A model generated the notes under the pieces. It saw only the letters and a list, made by a program, of their open reading frames with translations, was not told the DNA's origin and made no database searches. Both the position numbers and the translations under genes were made by a program. Of a stretch of DNA of 64,000 nucleotides, positions 8,982 through 29,233 are shown piece by piece. Position 1 is the first letter of the stretch. Each line of letters starts with the position of its first letter. This stretch comes from Acidimicrobiia bacterium. Its GTDB lineage: Bacteria; Actinomycetota; Acidimicrobiia; Spongiisociales; UBA11373. The DNA is taken from the NCBI GenBank assembly GCA_040882645.1, contig JBBEAX010000085.1, positions 148,801-212,800 on the forward strand, given 5' to 3'.

Positions 8982-10242
8982 GGCCGCGTAGCCCCAGGAG
9001 AGCGCCGAGCGACCACCACACGCCATCGAGTCCCCAATCGAATGGCAGCACCAGTCCGAGCAACCCGACCGCGATGGCCGACGACACCACCATGGCGATC
9101 GCGAGGAATCCGAAGTCGCCGGCACCGATGAACACGCCGTCCCAGACGAATACCACTGCCGCGACCGGTTGCATCAGCACGAGAATGGTGAAGGCGCTTT
9201 CGATCGCCTCGCGGGTCGCCGGGTCCGAGGTGAACCATCCGGCAACGAACGGCCCGACCGCCCATAGGACCATGGTCGCCACTACCCCCACTGCCACCCC
9301 GATCACCAACAGGCGGTCTGCGACCTCTCGGGCCGCCACCCGGTCACCCGACCCCAGCACCCGCGCCACCAACGCCTGGGCGGCGATGGCCAACGCGTCG
9401 AGCCCGAGCGCCAGGAAGAGGAACAGCTGGGACACCACTTGATGTGCCGCCACGGCGACGTCCGACACCCGGGTGGCGATCGCCGTTGCCATGGTGAAGG
9501 TGGCCAGCAGTGCCCCGGTACGGATCGCCAGATCCCGTCCCACCCGCAGGAATCGACGCACCTCGTCCGCGACCGGTCGTGCGCCGACGAGGCCGTAGCG
9601 CGACCGTCCTCGCGCGAGCAGAGCGACGAACCAGCAAGCCCCGATCCACTGAGCAGTCACGGTTGCCCACGCCGCCCCGGCCACCCCCCAGTCGAACCCG
9701 AAGATGAGTATCGGGTCGAGAACGAGGTTGACCGCGTTGACCCCGAGAGCGACGACAAACGGCGTTCGGGTGTCCTGGTAGCCGCGGTAGGCGCCGTGGG
9801 CGGCCCGGCTGAGCAGCACCGCCGGCGCCGCCAGGGCACGGATGCCGATATACGTCATCGCACCCGACCTCACCCCACCGGTGGCACCAAGCATCTCGAC
9901 GATCGGACCCCGGAAAAGCACCAGCGTGATGGCGACCGCCGAACCACACGCGACGCCGAGCACCCCGGCCGTGATCGTGGCGCGCCCGGCAGCCGCCAGA
10001 TCTCCCCTTCCGACCGCCCGCGCCACCTCCGTCGTCGTCCCGTACTCGAGGAAGTTGAAGAGGAAGAACGCGAGGCCGAATACGGCTGCCGCCACCCCCA
10101 GCGCACCGAGGGCATCGGTGCCCACCCGGCCGATGAAGGCCGTGTCCACGAGGCTGAGAACCGGCTCGGCGATGAGGGACCCCAACGCCGGCACCGCCAG
10201 CGCGGCGATTGCCCGATCATGAGGCGACCGCCATCGGGTCAC
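8920..10242 (-). CDS. MATE-family efflux transporter
   Basis: 12 TM helices. N-terminus AIAALAVPALGSLIAEPVLSLVDTAFIGRVG is MATE-typical. The likely start is the GTG at 10242, which forms a GTGA overlap with the nth stop. The ORF track's longer N-extension is probably not translated. Confidence 0.75.
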   Translation of the reverse strand: MTRWRSPHDRAIAALAVPALGSLIAEPVLSLVDTAFIGRVGTDALGALGVAAAVFGLAFFLFNFLEYGTTTEVARAVGRGDLAAAGRATITAGVLGVACGSAVAITLVLFRGPIVEMLGATGGVRSGAMTYIGIRALAAPAVLLSRAAHGAYRGYQDTRTPFVVALGVNAVNLVLDPILIFGFDWGVAGAAWATVTAQWIGACWFVALLARGRSRYGLVGARPVADEVRRFLRVGRDLAIRTGALLATFTMATAIATRVSDVAVAAHQVVSQLFLFLALGLDALAIAAQALVARVLGSGDRVAAREVADRLLVIGVAVGVVATMVLWAVGPFVAGWFTSDPATREAIESAFTILVLMQPVAAVVFVWDGVFIGAGDFGFLAIAMVVSSAIAVGLLGLVLPFDWGLDGVWWSLGALLGLRGLTLAWRRAARQGPFANPVRG

Positions 10243-10913
10243 GGGGGAGGCGTCTTGTCCGGATAGGGGCACAGGTCGCGCAGGGGACACTCCCAACACC
10301 GGGGCTTGCGCGCCGAGCAGATATCCCGACCGAACTGGATCACCCGCATCGAGATCCCCGCCCACCGGGCCGGTGGATAGAGGCCCCGGAGATCCCCCTC
10401 GACCTTCACCGGATCGGTGGCCGCGGTCAATGCGAGGCGGCGAGCCACTCGCTTCACGTGAGTATCGACGGCGATGGCGGGTTTGCTCCATGCCTCGGCA
10501 AGCACCACGCTCGCCGTCTTCCGGCCGACACCTTTGAGTGTGACAAGGCGGCCGAGGTCGTCTGGCACCTCTCCATCGAACCGATCGATGAGATCCGCGC
10601 TCAGCGCGATGACCGCCCTGGTCTTCTGCCGGTAGAAGCCGGTCGAGTAGACCACCTGCTCGACTTCATCAGGGTCGGCGTTGGCCAGGTCGGCCGCCGT
10701 CGGCCACCGGGCAAACACCGCCGGGGTCACCCGATTGACGTTCTCATCGGTGGTCTGCGCACTCAGCACAGTGGCGACGAGCAACTGCCAGGGGTCTTCG
10801 TACTCGAGCGCCGTGCCGATATCGGGATAGCGACGCTGGAGTCGATTCAAGATCGTGCGTGCCCGGCGTCGCTCCGCGGCTTCGGCGACGGAGGGGGGAG
10901 AAGCGGGTGCCAT
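10239..10913 (-). CDS. nth: Endonuclease III
   Basis: HhH-GPD motif (LVTLKGVGRKTASVV), catalytic Lys/Asp, and C-terminal 4Fe-4S cluster CxxxxxxCxxCxxxxxC. Confidence 0.9.
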   Translation of the reverse strand: MAPASPPSVAEAAERRRARTILNRLQRRYPDIGTALEYEDPWQLLVATVLSAQTTDENVNRVTPAVFARWPTAADLANADPDEVEQVVYSTGFYRQKTRAVIALSADLIDRFDGEVPDDLGRLVTLKGVGRKTASVVLAEAWSKPAIAVDTHVKRVARRLALTAATDPVKVEGDLRGLYPPARWAGISMRVIQFGRDICSARKPRCWECPLRDLCPYPDKTPPP

Positions 10914-13217: not shown

Positions 13218-13553
13218 TCACGGGCGATGCGGTTTGCGGCCAAATTCCGCCGCCGCACCCTCGGCCTCGCGTCGTTGCTCCATTAGAGACCGAATATGAA
13301 AGGCTGCTCTGAGCAGCATCAGCAGGAGGAAGAGCACCACGACGAGCAACCCGACCAACTCCGGGCCGTCGAAGTATGAGGTGCGGCAGGATCCGAGACC
13401 CTCGGTACACAGCCCGAGGCCGTCCCCCCCTCCGGCAAGATCCAGCAGGGCGAACATCGGCACCAGGGCGATCAGCACGATTGCCCCGATGACGATCCCG
13501 ATCACGATCCGGATGCCGGTCACTTCGGGGACGGTATCAGCCTGCGGCCACAA
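13218..13553 (-). CDS. Small hypothetical membrane protein
   Basis: 111 aa, two hydrophobic helices. Convergent with the EamA gene. Confidence 0.3.
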   Translation of the reverse strand: MWPQADTVPEVTGIRIVIGIVIGAIVLIALVPMFALLDLAGGGDGLGLCTEGLGSCRTSYFDGPELVGLLVVVLFLLLMLLRAAFHIRSLMEQRREAEGAAAEFGRKPHRP

Positions 13554-13637: not shown

Positions 13638-15314
13638 ATGACTGCGACGACCAGGAACCCGGTTGGGGCCCTGCCCCCGGTCGGGTACCACACGGAGACG
13701 TTTACACCCGACGAGACGGCGGTGCTTGCACGCTTCTTCACCAACACCTCCGAGCCGGTGTTCGGCCTCATCAATCTCCCCGAAGTCGTCAAGGGCGCAC
13801 TGTTCGCCCGCTACAGCCGCTCCCCCAAGTCGGTGAGGCGACTGTTTCTCGATGAGTTCTACGACGCCCCCGAGGTGGGGATCGCAGCGATAGCCGAGGG
13901 TCTCGAAGGCGACCACGAGCGGATCAAGTTGAGTCGAGCCGAGGACCTCTACAACCGGGTCTTCACGCAGTACGGTGACGATTCTGTGGCGCAGCTGGGC
14001 GGGGTGCACCTCGCCTGCGAGCAGGCCTCCAACGTCCTCACCAAGGTCCTCGAACGAGGCCGACTGGCGGCGTATCTGGAACAGAGCACGCGTTACATGT
14101 TCTACGACCAACGGCTCGGCGGGCGCTACCGGTTTCTCATCCCCCCAGAGGTCGCCACCTCTCCGCTGGCAGCGGAGTACTCGGCCACGATGGAGCGCCT
14201 GTTCGACACCTACGCCGGGCTGACCGAGCGGCTGACCGCGTACTACGAGTCGTTGTTCCCCAAGTCATCAGATGACTCCGACTTCGTCTACCGGTCGACC
14301 ATCAGGGCGAGGGTCTGTGACGATCTGCGGGGCTTGCTACCCGCGGCCACCCTGTCGAACGTCGGAATCTACGGCACGGGACAGGCTTACGAGATGCTGC
14401 TGCTCCGTATGCGGGCCAACCCAACCGCCGAGGTGCGCCAGGTGGCCGACCGGATGCTTACCGAGCTACGCAAGCTGATACCCGCGTTCCTCGTCCGGGT
14501 CGACAATCCGGAACGCGGCGGGGCGTGGAGTCGATACCTCGAGGACACCGCAGCCCGGATGCGGGCGGTGGCTGGAGAGATCTCCGAGCCGGTACCGGCG
14601 CGCCCCGAGGTGACCCTGGTCGAGTGGGATTCCGATGCCGAGACCAAGATCGCCGCGGCCGCTCTCTATTCCTATACCGATCTGCCGGACGACCGCCTCC
14701 TCGAGATGGCGCGGCAAATGACGGCGGAGGATCGTGCGAGGGTCATCGCCGCCTATGTGGGCGAACGCGAGAACCGCCGCCACAAGCCCGGTAGAGGGAT
14801 GGAGCGGGTCGCCTACCGGTTCGACATCCTGTGCGACTACGGCATCTTCCGTGATCTCCAACGCCATCGGATGCTCACCCTCGACTGGCAGCGCCTCGGA
14901 ACTCTCCACGGGTACGTGGTGCCTGAGTCCATCATCGACGTCGAGGCGGAAGGGGCGTGGCACGAAGCAATGGCCCGTGCTGAGGCGCTCCACGGGGAGA
15001 TGGTGTCATCGCTCGGAGCCGAACTCGCCCAATACGCGGTGCCGTTCGCGTACCGCATTCGATTCTTCATGCACCTCAACGCCCGCGAGGCGTTCCACCT
15101 TCTCGAATTGCGGACTGCCGAGGGCGGGCACCCCGACTACCGCCGGGTCTGCCAGGAGATGCATCGGTTGATCCGTGATCAGGCGGGGCATCGGGCCGTC
15201 GCCGATGCCATGCGCTTCGTCGATCATGGCGACCACGGGCTGGGCCGCCTCGCCACCGAGCGCCGGGCGGCAGCCAAGCGAGCCGCGGCTGGAGTCGCCG
15301 ATCCTGACGACTGA
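13638..15314 (+). CDS. Tandem-domain ThyX-fold protein (FAD-dependent thymidylate synthase family, both halves with altered catalytic motifs)
   Basis: The N-half has FARYSRS (compare ARVSF), ERGRLAAYLEQSTRY (compare RHRIASYNELSGRY) and ARVCDDLRGLLPAATLSN...EMLLLRMRANPTAEVRQ (compare R.VLPL.LYT...LRADSHAQWEI). The C-half repeats the fold with LQRHRMLTLDWQRLG and AVPFAYRIRFFMHLNAREAFHLLELR. Confidence 0.6.
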   Translation: MTATTRNPVGALPPVGYHTETFTPDETAVLARFFTNTSEPVFGLINLPEVVKGALFARYSRSPKSVRRLFLDEFYDAPEVGIAAIAEGLEGDHERIKLSRAEDLYNRVFTQYGDDSVAQLGGVHLACEQASNVLTKVLERGRLAAYLEQSTRYMFYDQRLGGRYRFLIPPEVATSPLAAEYSATMERLFDTYAGLTERLTAYYESLFPKSSDDSDFVYRSTIRARVCDDLRGLLPAATLSNVGIYGTGQAYEMLLLRMRANPTAEVRQVADRMLTELRKLIPAFLVRVDNPERGGAWSRYLEDTAARMRAVAGEISEPVPARPEVTLVEWDSDAETKIAAAALYSYTDLPDDRLLEMARQMTAEDRARVIAAYVGERENRRHKPGRGMERVAYRFDILCDYGIFRDLQRHRMLTLDWQRLGTLHGYVVPESIIDVEAEGAWHEAMARAEALHGEMVSSLGAELAQYAVPFAYRIRFFMHLNAREAFHLLELRTAEGGHPDYRRVCQEMHRLIRDQAGHRAVADAMRFVDHGDHGLGRLATERRAAAKRAAAGVADPDD

Positions 15315-15368
15315 CGGGGATGAGGCGATCGGGGTTCTAGGCTTGAGACCCAGACCGGAGTTGGGACG

Positions 15369-15590
15369 ATGGCGACATTCGACGTAGATGCCTTCAAGGA
15401 GCGCTTTCGGCGACGGGCCGAGGCCGTCAAAGAGCGCGGTGTTCCCCCGCTCGAAGGTGAAGCCCGTCGCAAGTTCCTCGCCGGGGCGCAACAGGACTTC
15501 GTCGACTATTCGCTCGTCGCCGACGCCGACGTCTCGGTCGAGGACGACGCGCTGGTGCTGCGAGTCCCCCTCGGCGACCAAACCGGATAG
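15369..15590 (+). CDS. Small conserved hypothetical protein (73 aa), co-operonic with the ArsA-like ATPases
   Basis: Strong GC3 bias. 55 nt after the ThyX-like gene and 16 nt before the first ArsA-like gene. Confidence 0.45.
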   Translation: MATFDVDAFKERFRRRAEAVKERGVPPLEGEARRKFLAGAQQDFVDYSLVADADVSVEDDALVLRVPLGDQTG

Positions 15591-15605
15591 CCCCACCTCT
15601 TTCGC

Positions 15606-16454
15606 ATGCTCGAACGGCGCCTCCTCATCGTCACCGGCAAGGGTGGGGCGGGCCGGAGCGCGCTGAGCGCCGCCGCCGCCCTCCACGCGGCGAAGCACGG
15701 CAGGCAGGTGCTCGCGATCGGCATGACCGACGCCACCGGCCTCGGTTCCCACCTCCGGGTGCCCGTGCTGGGGCCGCAGCCCGTGCTGGTGCGGCCCGGG
15801 CTTCACGCGCTGGCGGTCGATCCTGCGGCCGCCCTCGACGAGTATCTGAGGCTCCGCCTCAAGGTCCCTCGCTTTGGGCCGGCCACGCGGGCGTTTCGAG
15901 TGCTCGCGGAAACGGTGCCCGGAATCCGGGACACCGTGGTCATGGGCAAGATCCTCTTCGAGGCGACTCGCGACCGCTGGGATCTCGTGGTGGCCGACGC
16001 CCCTCCCACCGGGCAGGTCATGTCCTACCTGCGCGCTCCGGCGACGATCGAGTCGCTGGTCCCGCGGGGAAGAGTCAAAGAACAGGCCAGTTGGATGCGC
16101 ATGACCCTGCATGACCCCGAAGTGACCGGTCTGATGATCACAGCCACCCCCGAAGAACTGCCCGTTGCCGAAACGAACGAGACGCTGGTCGCCCTGGCCG
16201 CCGAGGGCTTGATGGAAGCCACCGGGGTGGTTGCCAACCGCGTCCTGCCGCCCCTCGCCATCCCCCCGGAACGCATCGCCCGGGAGCCTGCCGGGTCCCG
16301 GCGTGACGCCGCCACGCTCCACCTCCAGGTGGAGACGGCACAGCGAGTTCATCTCGACCGGCTCAAACCCGACATGAGGTTTCCGTTGCTCTTCGGGCTG
16401 CGCACTCCCGGCGAAGTGGCAAGTCGGCTCTCGGAGCTCTGGGGAGACGAATGA
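15606..16454 (+). CDS. ArsA/Get3-family ATPase paralogue with degenerate Walker A (GKGGAGRS)
   Basis: LIVTGKGGAGRS in place of GKGGVGKT. The rest of the fold is conserved. ATGA overlap with the next gene. Confidence 0.7.
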   Translation: MLERRLLIVTGKGGAGRSALSAAAALHAAKHGRQVLAIGMTDATGLGSHLRVPVLGPQPVLVRPGLHALAVDPAAALDEYLRLRLKVPRFGPATRAFRVLAETVPGIRDTVVMGKILFEATRDRWDLVVADAPPTGQVMSYLRAPATIESLVPRGRVKEQASWMRMTLHDPEVTGLMITATPEELPVAETNETLVALAAEGLMEATGVVANRVLPPLAIPPERIAREPAGSRRDAATLHLQVETAQRVHLDRLKPDMRFPLLFGLRTPGEVASRLSELWGDE

Positions 16455-17479
16455 CCGCGATCGTGCTGGTGGTGGGCGCCGGAGGAGTCGGCAAGACGAC
16501 CATGGCCGCGGCGATCGCCGCCGCCGCCGCTCGCGACGGGGTAAACACCCTCGTGCTCACGGTGGATCCAGCCCGGCGCCTGGCGGATGCCCTGGGGTTG
16601 GAACTGGGAAACCACCCCACGCCGGTCCCCGGTGTCGATGGCCTGGCGGCGGCCATGCTCGACGCCGCGGCCTCCTGGGAGGCAATCGTCCGCACCCACG
16701 CCAGCGGCCCCGTCGCCGACCGGCTGGTCGCCAACCCGCTGTTTCGCGCCGTGGCCGACCGGTTCCCGTCGGGTCAGGCATACGCCGCGGCCGAGGAGAT
16801 GACCACCCACGCCGACTCGGGGGTCTGGGACCTGGTGGTGGTGGACACCCCACCGTCCTCCGGTGGAATCGACTTCTTGGCATCGCCACAACGGATGAGA
16901 GCACTGGTGGCCGGCCGGGCGCTTCGTTGGCTCACCGGGCCCAAGCTCCCCGGCAAGCGAGCCGTCTACTCCTTCACCGCCCGGCCGGCGCTTCGCCTCG
17001 CCGATGCCGTGCTGGGTGGTCCTCTGCTGGAAGACGTGGCCGAATTTCTGCTCGATCTGCGCGAAACCTATGACGGCATCTCCAAGCGGTCGCGGCAGGT
17101 GGAAACAACGTTGCGAAGGGCAACGGCAGTGATCGTGACCACGGCCGATCCAACCCCGGTTCGGGAGATGGTCCGGTTCTTCGACGAGTTGCCGTCGTGG
17201 GCCGGGCGGCCCCGGGCAGTCGTGTTCAACAGGGCGCTGCCCGCCGCCTGGGCTCACGCCATCACCGACCCCGACGACGCTCTCGATGCGAATCTGGCGC
17301 GCTGGGGACTCGAGGCCGCCCGGCAGCAGGATATTCGGACGGAGATCGCGCTTCGCCATGGGCTCATCCCCATCGTGGTCCCCTGGCTTCCGGAGATGCC
17401 GGCCGACCCCGCGGCCCTGGCCGCCGTCGCCGAGCAGGCAGGAGGTCTCGATCTGAAGAGCATCGGCCTGATTCGGTGA
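16451..17479 (+). CDS. ArsA/Get3-family ATPase (intact Walker A GAGGVGKTT)
   Basis: VVGAGGVGKTTMAAAIA plus a VVDTPP switch-like motif. Translationally coupled to the upstream paralogue. Confidence 0.8.
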   Translation: MTAIVLVVGAGGVGKTTMAAAIAAAAARDGVNTLVLTVDPARRLADALGLELGNHPTPVPGVDGLAAAMLDAAASWEAIVRTHASGPVADRLVANPLFRAVADRFPSGQAYAAAEEMTTHADSGVWDLVVVDTPPSSGGIDFLASPQRMRALVAGRALRWLTGPKLPGKRAVYSFTARPALRLADAVLGGPLLEDVAEFLLDLRETYDGISKRSRQVETTLRRATAVIVTTADPTPVREMVRFFDELPSWAGRPRAVVFNRALPAAWAHAITDPDDALDANLARWGLEAARQQDIRTEIALRHGLIPIVVPWLPEMPADPAALAAVAEQAGGLDLKSIGLIR

Positions 17480-17534: not shown

Positions 17535-20500
17535 CTAGGTGAGCACAGAATCGGCGCCCAACAGGGCCCGCAGCTCTGCGTATAGAGAGGTCCTCGCCTC
17601 CACCGTGTGCTCAGGGCCGAGCCGGACCACCTTTTCGGCGGGCTTGCCTTCGAGGTGCAAGTAGACCGGCGTCGGCCCCGGATGGTTCGAAAGCACCTCC
17701 TTGAGTCGATTCACCAGGGTCACCGACATCCGCTGAGCGGCGACCCGGAGACGTACGACGCGCTCGGCATCGATGTCGGGCTCGTGAATCTTCTGGGCAA
17801 TGAACTTGAGGCTGTCGCCCCGCTGATCGACCCGCCCGGCCACCACCAGGACCGCGTCGTCACGTACCAACGGCCCGGCCTCGGCGACCGTCCGGGGAAA
17901 CGCCAGCACCTCGACGCTCCCCTCCAGATCCTCCAGCGTGAAATAGAGCATCAACTCACCGGCGCGGGTGTAGCGGCGGGTGACCGCGCTGACGATTCCG
18001 GCGATGCTGGCGACGGTGCCGTCGCGGTGATCCTCGAGTCCGGCGATCGAAGTGGTCGCCAGCGCCTTGAGTGCGGTCTCGATCCCGAACAACGGATGAT
18101 CCGACACGTAGAGGCCGAGCATTTCCTTCTCGAACTGGAGCTTCACCTTCTTGTCCCACTCCATGTCGGGGATATCGATGACCCCGGAGTGGGTCGACGG
18201 CTCCTCCGCCCCGAACAACGAGAACTGCCCCATGTCTTCGGCCCGCCGCCGGGTGACCACCGCTTCGATCATTTGCTCGTGCACCGCCATCAGCCCTTTG
18301 CGGGGGGCGCCGGTGGAATCGAACGCGCCCGCCTTGATCAGTGATTCGATGGTGCGCTTGTTCAGAACCGACAGGTCGACCCGGTCGATGAAGTCCTGGA
18401 ACGATTCATAGAGGCCGTTCTTGCGGCGCTCTTCGGTGATCAACTCGACCACCCCCTCACCGACGTTGCGAATCGCCGACAGGCCGAAGGGCACTGCCCC
18501 GTCCCGGGCCACGAAGTCCGATTCCGACGCGTTCACATCGGGCACGAGCACTCGCACGCCCATCGCCCGGCACTCGTTGAGGTACACGGCCGTCCGGTCC
18601 TTGTCGCGCTTGGCCGAGGTGAGCAGCGCAGCCATGTACTCGGCGGGATAGTGCGCCTTGAGCCACGCGGTCTGATAGGCGATCAGCCCGTAGCCGACCG
18701 CGTGGGGCTTGTTGAAGCCGTATCCGGAGAAATGGGCGATCAGGTCGAAGAGCTCCTTGCCCAGCTCTCGTGGATGTCCCTCCGCGATGCAGCCCTCGAT
18801 GAACTGCTGCTCCTGCTCGGTCATCACCGACGCGATCTTCTTGCCCATCGCCTTGCGCAGGCTGTCCGCCTCCTCCATCGAGTAGCCGGCGATCAGCGCG
18901 GCCACCTGCATGACCTGCTCCTGATACACGATGATCCCGTAGGTGTCGCCGAGCACCTCCGCCAGGGCAGGGTGGAGATGGCCGATGGCGACCCTGCCGT
19001 TCTTTCGATCTGCATAGAGGTTGTGGGTTCCTGCACCCATCGGCCCGGGCCGGTAGAGCGACAGCAGGGCGACGATGTCGTTGAACCGGTCCGGCTGGAG
19101 GTTGCGCATGAGCGACCGCATCCCCGACCCCTCCAACTGAAAGACGCCCATCGAGTCGCCGCGTGAGAGCATCTCGTAGACACTCGGGTCGTCGAGGGGC
19201 ACGCCGTCGATGTCGGGCCGTTCACCCCGCGTTTCCTGAATCAGTTCGAGGCATCGCTCGATCGTCGAGAGGTTTCTCAGCCCGAGGAAGTCCATCTTCA
19301 GCAACCCGAGGCGCTCGATGGCATGCATCTCGAACTGGGTGACGACCTCGGCGTCCTCGCCCTTCTGCTGGATGGGCACGATGTCCGTGAGCGGGTCTGG
19401 GGTGATCACCACCGCAGCAGCATGGATCGAGTCCTGACGGCGCAACCCTTCCAGTCCCAGGGCCGTGTCGATCACCCGACGGGCATCAGGGTCGGAGGCA
19501 TACATCTCGCGCAACCCCGAGGCATTGGCGTGGGAGTCCCGGAGACCAGAGTCGGCGTCGTCGGGCAGATCGTCCAGGCACTGCGCCAGGCTCGCCTCCC
19601 GGCCGAGGATGGGGGGAGGCATCGCCTTGGCGGTGCGGTCGCCCACCGCGTAGGGATAGCCGAGAACCCGGGCGGCGTCGCGCACGGCCTGGCGGCCCTT
19701 GATGGTCGAGAAGGTGATGATCTGGGCGACATGGTCGCTGCCGTATCGCTCCGAGGCGTATCGGATCATCTCGGCGCGGTAGCGCTCGTCGAAGTCCATG
19801 TCGATGTCGGGCATCTCCCGCCGACCGGGGTTGAGGAATCGTTCGAAGATGAGCCCGTACGCGATCGGATCGAGATCGGTGATGCGTAGGCAATAGGAGA
19901 CGATCGACCCCCCCGCTGATCCCCGTCCGGGACCCACCCTGATCCCCTGCTCGCGGGCATGACGTATCAGGTCCCAGACGATCAAGAAGTAGGCGGGGAA
20001 GCCCATATCGTCGATCACCCGCAACTCGTACTCGATCCGGTCACGGATCTCGGTCGTCAGCGAATCCCCGTAGCGGAACCGGGCACCCTCCTCGACCAGG
20101 TCGCGGAGGTAGGCGTTCTCGGTGCGCCCGGCGGGCACCGGGAAGTGCGGCAGGAGGATGTTGCCGAAATCCATCGCGACGTCGGCCCGCTCGACGACGA
20201 GAAGGGTGTTGTCACAGGCTCCAGGAAAATCCTCGTCGGGGAACAGGCCGCGCATCTCGGCGGCGGTCTTCACGTAGTACCCCTCGCCCTGGAACGCGAA
20301 GCGGCCTTCATCACCCATCTGCGCTCCGGTTTGGATGCACAGCAGGGCGTCATGCGCCTCTGCCTCCTCGACCCGGCTGTAGTGGCAGTCGTTGGTGGCA
20401 AGCAGTGGTGCACCCAGTTCCTTGGCGATCGACAGGAGGTCGGGCAGCACCTTCCGCTGCGCCGGCACCCCATGGTCCATCACCTCGACGAAGAAGTTGT

Positions 20501-21047
20501 CCTTGCCGAAAATGTCCTGGTACATCGCCGCAGCGGACACTGCGGCCGTGTAGTCGCGTTGGCCGCCGACATTCCCCTCCTCGGCCGAGGCATCCGGGGC
20601 AAGCAGTTGAGGAACGTGCCCCCCGAGACATCCAGTGGTGGCGATCAAACCCTCCGAGTACTCGCTGAGCAGTTCCCGATCCATCCGTGGCTTGTAATAG
20701 AAGCCCTCGAGATACGCCCGGCTCGCCAGCTTGACCAGGTTGCGGTAGCCCTGCTGGGTCACTGCGAGGAGGGTGATGTGGTACCGGATGTCATCGCGGC
20801 GAGCCGGGCGATCGAACCGCGAACCTGGGGTCAGGTAGGCCTCCATCCCGATCACGGGAGTGACGCCGGCGGCGGTTGCCTGCTGGTAGAAGTCGACGGC
20901 GCCGTACAGGACGCCGTGGTCGGTCAGGCCTACGCCCGGTTGGCCATCCGCCACGACCGCCTTCATCACGTCGGCGACCCGGGCCGCCCCATCGAGCATC
21001 GAGTATTCAGTGTGCAGATGCAGATGGGCGAAGCCGCGTCCCGACAC
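17535..21047 (-). CDS. dnaE: DNA polymerase III alpha subunit (DnaE1)
   Basis: 1170 aa. N-terminal PHP domain (HLHLHTEYSMLDGA), and palm/fingers motifs throughout. Confidence 0.95.
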   Translation of the reverse strand: MSGRGFAHLHLHTEYSMLDGAARVADVMKAVVADGQPGVGLTDHGVLYGAVDFYQQATAAGVTPVIGMEAYLTPGSRFDRPARRDDIRYHITLLAVTQQGYRNLVKLASRAYLEGFYYKPRMDRELLSEYSEGLIATTGCLGGHVPQLLAPDASAEEGNVGGQRDYTAAVSAAAMYQDIFGKDNFFVEVMDHGVPAQRKVLPDLLSIAKELGAPLLATNDCHYSRVEEAEAHDALLCIQTGAQMGDEGRFAFQGEGYYVKTAAEMRGLFPDEDFPGACDNTLLVVERADVAMDFGNILLPHFPVPAGRTENAYLRDLVEEGARFRYGDSLTTEIRDRIEYELRVIDDMGFPAYFLIVWDLIRHAREQGIRVGPGRGSAGGSIVSYCLRITDLDPIAYGLIFERFLNPGRREMPDIDMDFDERYRAEMIRYASERYGSDHVAQIITFSTIKGRQAVRDAARVLGYPYAVGDRTAKAMPPPILGREASLAQCLDDLPDDADSGLRDSHANASGLREMYASDPDARRVIDTALGLEGLRRQDSIHAAAVVITPDPLTDIVPIQQKGEDAEVVTQFEMHAIERLGLLKMDFLGLRNLSTIERCLELIQETRGERPDIDGVPLDDPSVYEMLSRGDSMGVFQLEGSGMRSLMRNLQPDRFNDIVALLSLYRPGPMGAGTHNLYADRKNGRVAIGHLHPALAEVLGDTYGIIVYQEQVMQVAALIAGYSMEEADSLRKAMGKKIASVMTEQEQQFIEGCIAEGHPRELGKELFDLIAHFSGYGFNKPHAVGYGLIAYQTAWLKAHYPAEYMAALLTSAKRDKDRTAVYLNECRAMGVRVLVPDVNASESDFVARDGAVPFGLSAIRNVGEGVVELITEERRKNGLYESFQDFIDRVDLSVLNKRTIESLIKAGAFDSTGAPRKGLMAVHEQMIEAVVTRRRAEDMGQFSLFGAEEPSTHSGVIDIPDMEWDKKVKLQFEKEMLGLYVSDHPLFGIETALKALATTSIAGLEDHRDGTVASIAGIVSAVTRRYTRAGELMLYFTLEDLEGSVEVLAFPRTVAEAGPLVRDDAVLVVAGRVDQRGDSLKFIAQKIHEPDIDAERVVRLRVAAQRMSVTLVNRLKEVLSNHPGPTPVYLHLEGKPAEKVVRLGPEHTVEARTSLYAELRALLGADSVLT

Positions 21048-25762: not shown

Positions 25763-28700
25763 ATGGCCGACTCATCGTTCGACCGGGCACCTTCGGATGT
25801 CTCGTTCCCCGCGCTCGAAGAGCAGATCCTCGACCTGTGGGATCGGATCGACGCGTTCCACGAATCGGTGCGGATGCGGCCCGAGGACAACGAGTTCACC
25901 TTCTACGACGGCCCGCCCTTCCCCACCGGGAGTCCGCACTACGGGAACCTCCTCGCCGGCGTCCTCAAGGACATCGTTCCCCGCTACTGGACGATGCGGG
26001 GGCACCGCGTCGTCAGACGTTTCGGGTGGGACACCCACGGTCTGCCGATCGAGCTGGAGGTCCAGGACGAGCTCGACCTCTCCGGGCCGTCGGACATCCT
26101 CGAATACGGCGTCGCCCGCTTCAACGAGGCCTGTCGCGTGCGGGTGATGGAGAACACCGAGGTGTGGGAGTCGGTCACGCGCCGTATTGGTCGCTGGGTC
26201 GACTTCGAGGATGACTACAAGACGATGGACACCGACTTCATGGAGTCGGTGTGGTGGGTGTTCAAGCGGCTGTGGGACGAGGGACTCGTCTACAAGGCGT
26301 TCAAGGTGCTGCCCTACTCGTGGGGCGCAGCGACACCACTCTCCAACTTCGAGGTCAACCTCGGCGAGTACCGCGACGTCGAAGACCCGTCCATCACGGT
26401 GCGACTCGCCGTGACCGAGGGCACCGGTCCGGTGCAACCCGGCGACCTGCTGCTGGTATGGACCACCACGCCGTGGACGATGCCGTCGAACCTTGGAGTG
26501 GCCGTCGGCCGCGACATCACCTACATGCGGATCGATGAGCCACTCGACGGCGAACCGGGGCGCCATTGGATCGCCGCCGATCGAGTGTCGGCGTACTGGC
26601 CGGAGGGCACCACGGGAACCGCGACGGCATCGGGTGAAGAGCTTCTGGGGACGCGCTACCGGCCCGCCTTCGACTATTTCGCCTCCCTCGCCGGTGAGGG
26701 CGCTTTCGTGGTCATTCCCAGCCCCGAGGTGTCCGTCGAGGAGGGCACCGGCCTGGTCCACATGGCGCCCGCCTTCGGCGAGGCCGACCTGGCGGCCTTC
26801 ACCGACGCCCGCCTCGACCACCTGCTGGTCGACCCGGTCGACGCCGAGGGGCGATTCACCGCGGCGGTCCCCGAGGTGGCCGGGGTGAGGGTGAAGGACG
26901 CCGACCCGGCCTTGATCAAGCTGCTCCGGGAACGCGGTGCACTGGCCCGCAGCGAGCGGATCACCCACTCGTATCCCTATTGCTGGCGCACCCACACCCC
27001 TCTCATATACAAGGCGATCCCCACCTGGTTCGTGGCCGTCGAGCGGATCCGCGACCGCATGGTGGAACTCAACGAGACCATCCACTGGGTGCCCGACCAC
27101 GTCGGGTCGAAGCGGTTCGGCAACTGGCTCGAACAGGCGCGCGACTGGGCGGTGTCCCGCAACCGGTTCTGGGGCTCATGTATCCCCGTGTGGGAGTGCG
27201 ACGGATGCGACGAGACCGTGTGCGTCGGCAGCATCGAAGAGTTGCGCGAGCGAAGCGGAGTCCTCGTCGACGACCTTCACAAGCACATCGTCGACGAGGT
27301 GACCTTCGGATGCAGTGCCTGCTCCGGGACGATGCACCGGGTCCCCGAGGTGCTCGACGTCTGGTTCGAGTCCGGGGCGATGCCATACGGCCAGAACCAT
27401 TACCCGTTCGAGAACAAGGAACGATTCGAGCGAGGATTCCCTGCCCACTACATCGCCGAGGGCCTCGATCAGACGCGGGGATGGTTCTACACGCTCGTGG
27501 TCCATGCGACCGCACTGTTCGATTCAGTCCCCTTCCGCAATTGCGTGGTCAATGGCCTGATCCTCGCCGAGGACGGACACAAGATGTCCAAGAGCCTCAA
27601 GAACTACCCGGACCCCCTGGTGCTGGTGGATTCGACCGGGGCCGACGCACTACGGGCGTACCTGATCAACTCCCCGGTGGTTCGGGCCGAGCCCCTGCGA
27701 TTCTCCGAGCGGGGGGTCCGCGAGGTGGTCCGCACCGTGATGCTCCCCTATTGGAATGCCTATTCGTTCTTCACCACCTACGCCGCGGCCGAGCGGCTCA
27801 CCGTTGATGACCTTGCCTCCGCCCCCGCCCCCGCCGACCGGCCCGAGATCGACCGGTGGATCCTCTCTGTGCTGCAGAGCCTGGTGAATCGGGTCAACAC
27901 GGAGATGGAGGGCTATTACCTGTACAACGTCATCCCCCCACTGATCGACTTCGTCGACGACCTGACCAATTGGTACATCCGCCGCTCGCGCCGGCGCTTC
28001 TGGACCGTCCGGGGTACCGACGCCGCCGACAGCCTGGCTGCCTTCGCCACCCTCTATGAAGTGCTCGTCACCTTTTCAAAGCTCATGGCCCCGGTCCTGC
28101 CGTTTGTGACCGAAGCGATGTACCAGGAGCTCGTCGTCGCCCGCAGGGCGCGGGCGGAGGACGGCCCCGCCAGCGTCCACCATGAGGACTATCCGGAATC
28201 GGACGACTCGCTGATCGACCGGCGCCTCGAGGCGGACATGGCCGCGGTGCGCGAGACGGTCGGCCTCGGGAGAGGGCTTCGGGTGACGGAGGGGATCAGG
28301 ATTCGCCAGCCCCTCGCCACCCTGACCGTCGTCAGCCACGACAGTGAGGTTCGTCAGGCAGTCGACCGGCACCGCGAGCTGGTTGCCGACGAACTCAACG
28401 TCAAGTCAGTGGTCACCTCGTCCGACGAGGGAAGCCTGGCGGTGGTCACCGCCAAGCCGAACTACCGCACCCTCGGCCCGCGCTTTGGGGCACGGATGGC
28501 CGAAGCAGCCGCGGCCATCGAGCAGCTCGCTCCTGCTGCCCTCAGCCGCATTCTCGAAGGGAAGACGATCGAGATACTCGGCGCCGAGGTGGGGACGGCC
28601 GACGTCGTGGTGGCCAGGGCGCCGAACCCCGGAGTGGCCGTGGCGAGTGGCGAGCGCCTCTCGGTCGCACTCGACACCGCCATCACCGCCGAACTCGCTC

Positions 28701-29233
28701 GGGAGGCGCTCGCCCGCGAGATCGTCAAGCTGGTGCAGGGCCAACGCAAGGATGCCGGCCTCGACGTCTCCGACCGCATCGATCTCTTTTGGGACTCGGT
28801 CTCGTCGGCCGTTGCGGCGGCATTCGAGCGCCACGCCGAATGGATCGCCTCGGAAGTACTGGCCGAAACAATCACCCGGGGCGAAGCCGGCGCGGACCAC
28901 GACGCGGCCGGAGAGCCGGTGGCCCTTCGGGTCGAGAGGTTCATCGCCAGGAAGACACCGAAACCTCCAAAGAAGGCCGCCGCCAAGAAGGTCACTCCCA
29001 AGACGAAGGGCAAAGGGGGACGCGCGGTTCACACCCTCCCCCACAACAAGGGCTGGGCCAACAAGCGCGCCGGCGCCTCCAAGGTGAGCAAGGTCTTCTC
29101 GACGAAGACCGCCGCCCAGAAGGCCGGTCGCGCGACGGCCATGCGTGAGAAGGTGGAGCACATCATCTACACCGCCGACGGGAAGTTGAGTGAACGAAGG
29201 TCGTACGGGAACGATCCACGCGGAAGGGGCTAG
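25763..29233 (+). CDS. ileS: Isoleucyl-tRNA synthetase with a C-terminal K/P-rich linker plus a DUF2188-like domain
   Basis: HYGN (HIGH-class) and KMSKS motifs plus the editing domain. The last ~100 aa are a TPKPPKKAAAKKVTPKTKGKGG linker followed by VHTLPHNKGWANKRAGASKVSKVFSTKTAAQKAGRATAMREKVEHIIYTADGKLSERRSYGNDP. Confidence 0.9.
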   Translation: MADSSFDRAPSDVSFPALEEQILDLWDRIDAFHESVRMRPEDNEFTFYDGPPFPTGSPHYGNLLAGVLKDIVPRYWTMRGHRVVRRFGWDTHGLPIELEVQDELDLSGPSDILEYGVARFNEACRVRVMENTEVWESVTRRIGRWVDFEDDYKTMDTDFMESVWWVFKRLWDEGLVYKAFKVLPYSWGAATPLSNFEVNLGEYRDVEDPSITVRLAVTEGTGPVQPGDLLLVWTTTPWTMPSNLGVAVGRDITYMRIDEPLDGEPGRHWIAADRVSAYWPEGTTGTATASGEELLGTRYRPAFDYFASLAGEGAFVVIPSPEVSVEEGTGLVHMAPAFGEADLAAFTDARLDHLLVDPVDAEGRFTAAVPEVAGVRVKDADPALIKLLRERGALARSERITHSYPYCWRTHTPLIYKAIPTWFVAVERIRDRMVELNETIHWVPDHVGSKRFGNWLEQARDWAVSRNRFWGSCIPVWECDGCDETVCVGSIEELRERSGVLVDDLHKHIVDEVTFGCSACSGTMHRVPEVLDVWFESGAMPYGQNHYPFENKERFERGFPAHYIAEGLDQTRGWFYTLVVHATALFDSVPFRNCVVNGLILAEDGHKMSKSLKNYPDPLVLVDSTGADALRAYLINSPVVRAEPLRFSERGVREVVRTVMLPYWNAYSFFTTYAAAERLTVDDLASAPAPADRPEIDRWILSVLQSLVNRVNTEMEGYYLYNVIPPLIDFVDDLTNWYIRRSRRRFWTVRGTDAADSLAAFATLYEVLVTFSKLMAPVLPFVTEAMYQELVVARRARAEDGPASVHHEDYPESDDSLIDRRLEADMAAVRETVGLGRGLRVTEGIRIRQPLATLTVVSHDSEVRQAVDRHRELVADELNVKSVVTSSDEGSLAVVTAKPNYRTLGPRFGARMAEAAAAIEQLAPAALSRILEGKTIEILGAEVGTADVVVARAPNPGVAVASGERLSVALDTAITAELAREALAREIVKLVQGQRKDAGLDVSDRIDLFWDSVSSAVAAAFERHAEWIASEVLAETITRGEAGADHDAAGEPVALRVERFIARKTPKPPKKAAAKKVTPKTKGKGGRAVHTLPHNKGWANKRAGASKVSKVFSTKTAAQKAGRATAMREKVEHIIYTADGKLSERRSYGNDPRGRG

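Follow-up and report, generated by a model that had tools for sequence, protein, structure and literature searches.

A fused two-domain ThyX with complementary active-site residue losses, and its lineage-specific gene neighbourhood, in an Acidimicrobiia chromosome

A 64,000-nucleotide (nt) stretch of DNA from an Acidimicrobiia bacterium (GenBank assembly GCA_040882645.1, contig JBBEAX010000085.1, positions 148,801 to 212,800; hereafter the window) carries a + strand gene, at 13638–15314, whose 558-residue product contains two domains of the flavin-dependent thymidylate synthase ThyX. Of the functions considered, the likeliest is a housekeeping one, that of a predicted thymidylate synthase with only half as many active sites as usual, in which each domain has kept the residues of one subunit role. 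Three further + strand genes follow: one for a 73-residue orphan protein and two for ATPases resembling BagA and BagB of Mycobacterium tuberculosis. All four open reading frames lie where an earlier, sequence-only reading of the window had placed them. Taken as a whole, the locus is probably best described as a fused predicted thymidylate synthase, a BagAB-like pair and an orphan protein that are neighbours without conserved functional coupling.

Domain architecture of the fused ThyX

The Pfam family Thy1 (PF02511) matches the 558-residue protein in two stretches (E 1e-44), with 153 bits for the whole protein. Scanned singly, half 1 (residues 1–318; 13638–14591, + strand) scores 72.6 bits and half 2 (residues 319–558; 14592–15314, + strand) scores 84.6 bits, both well above the cutoff of 24.8, which bears out the two ThyX folds that the sequence-only reading had recognised in this chain. 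Because a single-sequence search of the PDB gave nothing, 44 diverse members of the family were used to build a profile for each half, for comparison with solved structures. The half 1 profile matches M. tuberculosis ThyX (3gwc/2af6) at E 1e-4, and the half 2 profile matches the Helicobacter pylori and Thermotoga maritima enzymes at E ~2e-4.

When the halves are compared directly by hhalign, they align with a probability of 22 %, and partly out of register. They are thus barely recognisable as homologues of one another, and the duplication is therefore old. The case for a putative internal duplication rests on the separate matches of each half to Thy1 and to solved ThyX structures. An AlphaFold2 model of the full chain, computed from a 19-sequence alignment, was left unused, as its mean predicted local distance difference test (pLDDT) score was 60 and its active-site segments fell below 50; a Foldseek search of the PDB with this model returned noise only.

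Complementary residue sets in the two halves

Canonical ThyX positions were mapped onto each half through residue-by-residue profile alignments to the T. maritima (Tm) and M. tuberculosis (Mtb) enzymes, and conservation was counted in 86 fused proteins from related loci. The complete ThyX motif, RHRxxSxxxxSxR(Y), is found in neither domain alone. Half 2 keeps the RHR triad (Tm Arg78-His79-Arg80) as R409-H410-R411, together with the equivalents of Tm Arg74 (R405), Tm Asn163 and Arg165 (N481 and R483), and Tm Arg174/Mtb Arg199 (R492). Its motif reads RHRMLTLDW: a five-residue deletion has removed the ELSGR loop, which in Tm ThyX contributes Glu86, Ser88 and Arg90 to the binding of deoxyuridine monophosphate (dUMP), so that no SxR loop is left. 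Furthermore, W417 occupies the position of Tm Tyr91, and Tm Arg147/Mtb Arg172 is lost (Q465). Tm Glu58 and His59 align with E389 and R390, within a region corresponding to a Mtb His69–His75 stretch that is not mapped in full in half 2.

Half 1 presents the reciprocal pattern. The dUMP loop is retained as E148, S150 and R152, followed by Y153 (Tm Tyr91), and R231 corresponds to Tm Arg147/Mtb Arg172. The RHR triad is lost from its motif, [W/R]GRLAAYLEQSTRY; in the window the triad positions are R140-G141-R142, of which only R142 is kept. Tm Arg74 is likewise lost (K136), a GQA sequence replaces the segment holding Tm Asn163 and Arg165, and the alignment around Tm Arg174/Mtb Arg199 is ambiguous (R257-M258-R259). 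The Mtb motif G-H69-x-S-x-x-E74-H75 appears as GDDSVAQL, with His69, Glu74 and His75 lost.

The retained residues are conserved without exception. E148, S150, R152, Y153 and R231 of half 1 are each invariant in 86/86 fused proteins, as are R405, R409, H410, R411, R483 and R492 of half 2, and the proteins that share this complementary motif loss come from several phyla. The complementary losses noted in the sequence-only reading are therefore a property of the family, with an intact full motif in neither half. The RGR sequence that it reported for half 1 is indeed present in the window, but the usual form is WGR: Trp occupies position 140 in 69 of the 86 proteins and Arg in the remaining 17, which makes RGR a local variant.

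The partition of residues between the two halves corresponds to that between subunits in structurally characterised ThyX enzymes. In Mtb ThyX, one active site draws RHR95–97 and Arg199 from subunit A, and Arg87, Ser105, Arg107 and a lid residue, Tyr108, from subunit C (PMC6514825). Similarly, in the PBCV-1 enzyme, Ser88 and Gln89 are supplied by monomer B, and Gln75 and Arg182 by monomer A (PMC3498832). Since this published partition matches the residues kept, those of half 2 are precisely the A-role set and those of half 1 precisely the C-role set. By alignment, the full set of residues that contact dUMP and flavin adenine dinucleotide (FAD) is available to one composite site when the halves are combined.

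Positions at which catalytic residues have been lost are conserved as well. In the reciprocal pocket, the replacement residues K136, D114, Q119, L120 and G141 of half 1 and W417 of half 2 are invariant in 86/86 proteins. D115 of half 1 and Q418 of half 2 were also counted with the invariant positions (86/86) that replace lost catalytic residues.

A proposed half-of-sites model and its alternatives

It is proposed that an ancient internal duplication gave rise to two ThyX domains, each of which then specialised. In a canonical enzyme, the A-role subunit supplies the Arg174/Arg199 equivalent and the RHR motif, to which FAD and dUMP bind, and the C-role subunit supplies the Glu-x-Ser-x-Arg-Tyr dUMP loop; half 2 has kept only the former set and half 1 only the latter. 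On the basis of the alignments, two fused chains would form a dimer that mimics the ThyX tetramer but has two intact composite sites in place of four, and the two reciprocal pockets would have been rebuilt around the invariant replacement residues. Of the two alternatives put forward in the sequence-only reading, this agrees with the first, a single reconstituted asymmetric active site, an idea that the invariant A-role and C-role sets support well.

The fused protein shares the Thy1 domain with the canonical homotetrameric ThyX (also FDTS) enzymes, namely TM0449, Rv2754c, and those of H. pylori and PBCV-1 (A674R). Once its halves are combined, it also shares their catalytic residues (RHR and the equivalents of Arg174, Glu86/Ser88/Arg90/Tyr91 and Arg147), and its active site is likewise built across domain or subunit boundaries. 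It differs in having two domains in one 558-residue chain, whereas a canonical chain has ~220–250 residues, and in its predicted two intact plus two rebuilt pockets per pseudo-tetramer. A chlamydial ThyX of ~530 residues was reportedly shown to be active by Griffin et al. in 2005 (in J Biol Chem); it is a lead, as a roughly double-length ThyX that may have a comparable architecture.

Several observations weigh against this model. The protein scores 61.2 bits against the thyX equivalog model TIGR02170, under the cutoff of 87.9, and a single-sequence phmmer search of the PDB with the full protein finds no match at E ≤ 0.01. The geometry of the composite site comes from alignments only, the structure model being poor. 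Moreover, the degenerate half 1 pocket has invariant residues of its own (K136, D114, Q119, L120 and G141), which hints that it may retain a function beyond that of a simple dead site.

Because the replacement residues match the catalytic ones in their invariance, the second pocket, formed by the A-side of half 1 and the C-side of half 2, may have been rebuilt and not have decayed. It could have acquired a new role, for example as a site for reduced nicotinamide adenine dinucleotide phosphate (NADPH), folate or an allosteric nucleotide, in an enzyme that would be obligately half-of-sites. This extension of the model is offered tentatively, as a possibility that falls well short of being favoured.

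Another alternative is that the fused protein acts not as a thymidylate synthase but as a flavin-dependent methyltransferase, neofunctionalised for a different nucleotide or substrate and comparable to the uridine monophosphate (UMP) methylases of the ThyX family; a review mentions a ribothymidylate synthase that methylates UMP (PMC5954106). The score under the equivalog cutoff, the strong divergence from solved ThyX structures and the new invariant residues in one of the two pockets are all compatible with such a change. Against it, every reported dUMP or FAD contact is invariant (RHR and the equivalents of R174, S88, R90, Y91 and R147). The family also shows 50–70 % identity across phyla and one copy per scanned species genome, as is typical of an essential housekeeping enzyme, and the gene lies in core-genome contexts, not in biosynthetic clusters. 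Loss of thymidylate synthase function is accordingly regarded as quite unlikely, and a half-of-sites thymidylate synthase remains the preferred assignment.

Distribution and annotation of the fused family

Database searches show that the fused protein is no oddity: it belongs, as a typical representative, to a large family of thousands of proteins already annotated as ThyX. A word-indexed search with the 558-residue protein gave at least 8000 matches. The best 120 of these have 531–697 residues (mostly ~545–560) and are 67–98 % identical over their full length; those among the 120 that are named are called 'FAD-dependent thymidylate synthase' or 'thymidylate synthase ThyX'. Half 1 by itself, as the query of an exhaustive HMMER search, retrieved 549 clusters (50 % identity) at E ≤ 1e-30, the full-length members of which have 520–580 residues and, down to ~40 % identity, always carry the half 1 domain at the N-terminus. 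The distant members, including one from Ferrimicrobium sp., bear the same FAD-dependent thymidylate synthase name.

A scan of one genome per species located the fused gene in at least 594 species, mostly Acidimicrobiia, with other labels from Dehalococcoidia/Chloroflexota, Rokubacteria/Methylomirabilota and Vicinamibacterales. Some records of metagenome-assembled genomes that contain the fused gene or an Acidimicrobiia-type gene block (L023, L031, L075, L040 and L081; related loci are numbered with the prefix L) are labelled Gammaproteobacteria, Bifidobacterium breve or Bifidobacteriaceae, and are probably mis-binned or mislabelled assemblies.

No description of a fused, tandem or two-domain ThyX architecture was found in the literature searched, in which the arrangement is apparently undescribed. 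If the half-of-sites model is true, thymidylate would be made by such an enzyme in much of the Acidimicrobiia and in several other uncultured phyla of soils and the sea. The family would then show cleanly, in a natural example, how the subunit of an essential enzyme can be duplicated and fused and its two copies degenerate in complementary ways, and would be relevant to work on ThyX-targeted inhibitors. Its score under the TIGR02170 equivalog cutoff makes the protein relevant to annotation rules as well. The fused, probably half-of-sites ThyX with a conserved, putatively rebuilt second pocket, widespread in uncultured phyla, is the most interesting part of the locus.

The BagA/BagB-like ATPase pair

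The two ATPase genes downstream of the fused gene encode proteins of 282 residues (15606–16454, + strand) and 342 residues (16451–17479, + strand). Both match ArsA_ATPase (PF02374; 78.3 and 87.9 bits, respectively, cutoff 24.3), and their best PDB matches are the two chains of one M. tuberculosis structure, with 6bs3_A (Rv3679) matched by the 282-residue protein at E 2.8e-22 and 6bs3_B (Rv3680) by the 342-residue protein at E 2.7e-41. Correspondingly, their top NCBIfam models are BagA (NF053622, 112 bits) and BagB (NF053621, 183 bits), each far under its equivalog cutoff (400 and 521, respectively). Both proteins are also under the cutoff of 135 for the TIGR00345 subfamily (82.3 and 85.6 bits). 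The earlier assignment of the pair to the Rv3679/Rv3680 type is thereby upheld.

The pair shares with Mtb BagA/BagB (PDB 6bs3–6bs5) the A-then-B gene order, with each protein closest to the matching subunit, and its second protein, like Rv3680, has a GAGGVGKT motif without the signature Lys. It differs in that the proteins are shorter (282 and 342 residues, compared with PDB chains of 340 and 394), and in that the P-loop of the BagA-like protein has Arg in place of Lys. With ArsA and Get3 (TRC40), it has in common the ArsA_ATPase fold, a deviant Walker A motif and dimeric working; however, it consists of two separate, diverged genes and is neither a homodimer nor an internal fusion. The 282- and 342-residue proteins thus appear to form a heteromeric BagA/BagB-like pair of the ArsA/Get3 fold, presumably coupled in translation by the 4-nt overlap of their genes. 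BagAB is reported to protect M. tuberculosis from glycerol and nitric-oxide toxicity, its substrate being unknown (PMC10597346, PMC12216072). The pair in the window is presumably stress-protective too, as in mycobacteria.

The replaced Walker A Lys that the sequence-only reading had taken as the mark of an obligate heterodimer with one dead site is present, as GKGGAGRS with a Lys-to-Arg change at codon 16 (CGG, 15651–15653), but is not a general trait. The window shares it with L083 alone, a locus with 98 % identity in the ThyX-like protein, and GKGG[VA]GKS is found in 25 other relatives: L084 (86 % ThyX-like identity), L085 (80 %), four additional loci and 19 relatives at species level. The change is a recent strain- or species-level substitution, private to this group, and not a design feature of the family. 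A sequencing error was rejected as its source, the same codon being present in the independent assembly L083. The conserved asymmetry of the pair lies instead in the second protein, whose missing signature Lys is shared by 15 relatives (G[AG]GGVGKT) and Rv3680. In deviant Walker A ATPases, the signature Lys acts across the dimer interface. By analogy, the BagA-like site may be the less complete of the two, so that Arg would be tolerated there.

Adjacency of the fused ThyX and BagAB-like genes

The linkage between the fused ThyX and the ATPase pair was assessed by comparing the window's neighbouring genes with 85 related loci by tblastn; the BagAB counts for each group are over informative loci only. 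Within the window's lineage, the BagAB-like genes lie within 2 kilobases (kb) downstream of the fused gene in 20 of 25 loci. The order throughout is collinear: MatE, nth, (EamA), a small membrane protein, ThyX, the small gene, BagA, BagB and, further on, DnaE. In a second large Acidimicrobiales clade, BagAB is found near the fused gene in 0/25 loci, and the context is a different one, running from TatC to a HelY-type helicase, a YegS_C-like protein and the fused ThyX, with Lnt, GNAT and NUDIX genes beyond. In Dehalococcoidia, Rokubacteria, Vicinamibacterales and others the count is 0/20, with no shared context. BagAB thus stands near the fused gene in 0/45 informative loci outside the window's lineage.

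Even within the lineage, the pair is dispensable at this site. Five loci (L002, L005, L006, L007 and L008) lack BagAB and have the fused gene intact, and in all of these except L005 the ThyX–small gene–DnaE order is kept despite the missing pair, with DnaE directly after the small gene. Furthermore, the adjacency carries little information, because collinearity extends just as far over the unrelated housekeeping genes that make up the ~10-kb block. It is a lineage-specific gene order and not a conserved functional unit. As it is kept only where all else is kept, is dispensable within the lineage, and in roughly half of the loci is broken by a gene in antisense orientation, the ThyX–BagAB linkage is unsupported, and the functional connection suggested in the sequence-only reading is not upheld.

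A point against independence of the genes is that the ThyX–small gene–BagAB order is well kept inside the window's lineage, in 20/25 loci sampled from the ThyX side and in 4/4 further loci sampled from the BagB side, all of which lie in the same block. The order could have been kept through weak selection for proximity, and not through pure inertia.

This conservation, together with the short gaps, the shared strand and the lack of a terminator-like site on the + strand in this genome, is also what speaks for a true functional module of four genes. In such a module, BagAB and the small protein would assist the fused ThyX in cofactor loading, targeting or protection, or would act in the same stress pathway. 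Against it stand the equally collinear surroundings, the five loci of the same lineage that lack BagAB, the absence of BagAB from the 45 informative loci of other lineages, the unrelated but fixed TatC–HelY–YegS_C-like context of the second lineage, and the antisense orientation of the intervening gene in about half of the loci. A four-gene module is thus considered very improbable. In the preferred description, the locus would consist of three independent things that have become neighbours through lineage-specific chromosome collinearity. Mycobacterial bagAB lies within a few kilobases of nth and is not known to neighbour thyX, which would fit a view of BagAB as part of an old actinobacterial backbone rather than as tied to the ThyX gene.

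The locus offers a caution for genome scanning, in that close packing of genes on the same strand of a single genome pointed to an operon for which comparison with relatives gives no support. The spacing itself is slightly tighter than first given: the genes are separated by 54 and 15 nt, earlier values of 55 and 16 nt having been coordinate differences, and the BagA-like and BagB-like genes overlap by 4 nt, as reported. No terminator-like site was found on the + strand between 13100 and 17700, and promoter-like sites were also sought, with none found. Since the gaps are short and no such terminator intervenes, one shared transcript for the four genes is plausible in this genome; the near-certain co-transcription asserted in the sequence-only reading does not extend to the locus at large, where the small gene is antisense in 17 of 31 cases.

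The second context occurs at L025–L027, L030, L031, L035, L039, L043–L047, L049, L051, L053–L057, L060 and L063, and further at L066, L069, L070, L072, L073, L076 and L081. There, a YegS_C-like protein of ~228 residues is encoded directly upstream of the fused ThyX and is preceded by a HelY-type DEAD/DSHCT helicase; downstream, Lnt, a GNAT acetyltransferase and a NUDIX hydrolase recur in subsets of loci. In some relatives, extra genes lie between BagB and DnaE (L087, 7076–10114; L089, 5642–6919), for example one for a 741-residue He_PIG-domain protein, and this junction is evidently a site of gene gain.

The 73-residue orphan protein

The small gene between the fused ThyX and the ATPase pair (15369–15590, + strand) encodes a 73-residue protein with 393 homologues, all of ~70 residues and from Acidimicrobiia, and with no Pfam family. 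It is a lineage-restricted orphan. An AlphaFold2 model with a pLDDT of 90.8 has a helix–loop–helix plus a β-hairpin, and a search with this model gave no informative fold match.

In relatives (L001–L034, L064 and L083–L089), the small gene occupies the same slot after the fused gene, on either strand. The 17 antisense cases among the 31 related loci that carry it comprise 14 of 27 loci and 3 of 4 sampled from the BagB side. Flipped copies appear at scattered places in a neighbour-joining tree built from the fused protein, and in both small-protein subtypes (PPLEGEARR and PPVAGxER). An invertible element was considered and dropped, no consistent flanking inverted repeats having been found around the small gene, and the flips were treated as evolutionary inversions. 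Repeated inversion of a single gene of ~210 nt is unusual.

The small protein might be a dedicated partner of BagAB, as an adaptor, regulator or substrate-like factor, which would make small gene–BagA–BagB the actual unit. The small gene is confined to the lineage with BagAB at this site and, in every locus of the lineage that has both, immediately precedes the BagA-like gene, at a gap of −1 to 65 nt when it is in the + orientation. Yet four loci have the small gene without BagAB; in three of these (L002, L006 and L008), it lies ~50 nt or less downstream of dnaE on the same strand, and in the fourth (L007), ~680 nt. The small gene and BagA are divergently oriented in roughly half of the loci, and the fold of the small protein gives no functional clue. 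A partnership with BagAB is therefore judged unlikely, and the protein is treated here as a third independent component of the locus.

The surrounding chromosome

The block that contains the four genes is anchored upstream by endonuclease III (nth; 10239–10913, − strand), which has HhH-GPD and EndIII_4Fe-2S domains and is upstream in the syntenic relatives also. Its downstream anchor is the α subunit of DNA polymerase III (DnaE; 17535–21047, − strand), with a DnaE of 54–74 % identity found downstream in these relatives. A predicted membrane protein of 111 residues without a Pfam family (13218–13553, − strand) is divergent from the fused ThyX, on its upstream side; its gene is kept at the same place in most syntenic relatives, at 36–69 % identity.

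Pfam assignments identify the upstream neighbours as NAD synthase (NadE), a two-component system, DsbD, MatE, endonuclease III and EamA, and the downstream neighbours as DnaE, DUF2090, PFK, a pseudouridine synthase, IleRS, SepF, FtsZ, FtsQ, MurB and MurC. The run from NadE through Nth, DnaE and IleRS to the FtsZ/Mur genes marks the window as core chromosome; its G+C content is ~67 % throughout, with no compositional break. Among the Pfam-annotated open reading frames at window positions 1,546–35,860, there is no thyA, folA or single-domain thyX, and no arsenic-resistance or membrane-insertion genes are present among the Pfam-annotated neighbours of the ATPase pair. PADLOC defence models returned P-loop noise only. 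An Rfam scan of the window found only a tRNA (1399–1481), far from the four genes. The isoleucyl-tRNA synthetase encoded further downstream (25763–29233; 1156 residues) has C-terminal DUF5915 and DUF2188 domains.

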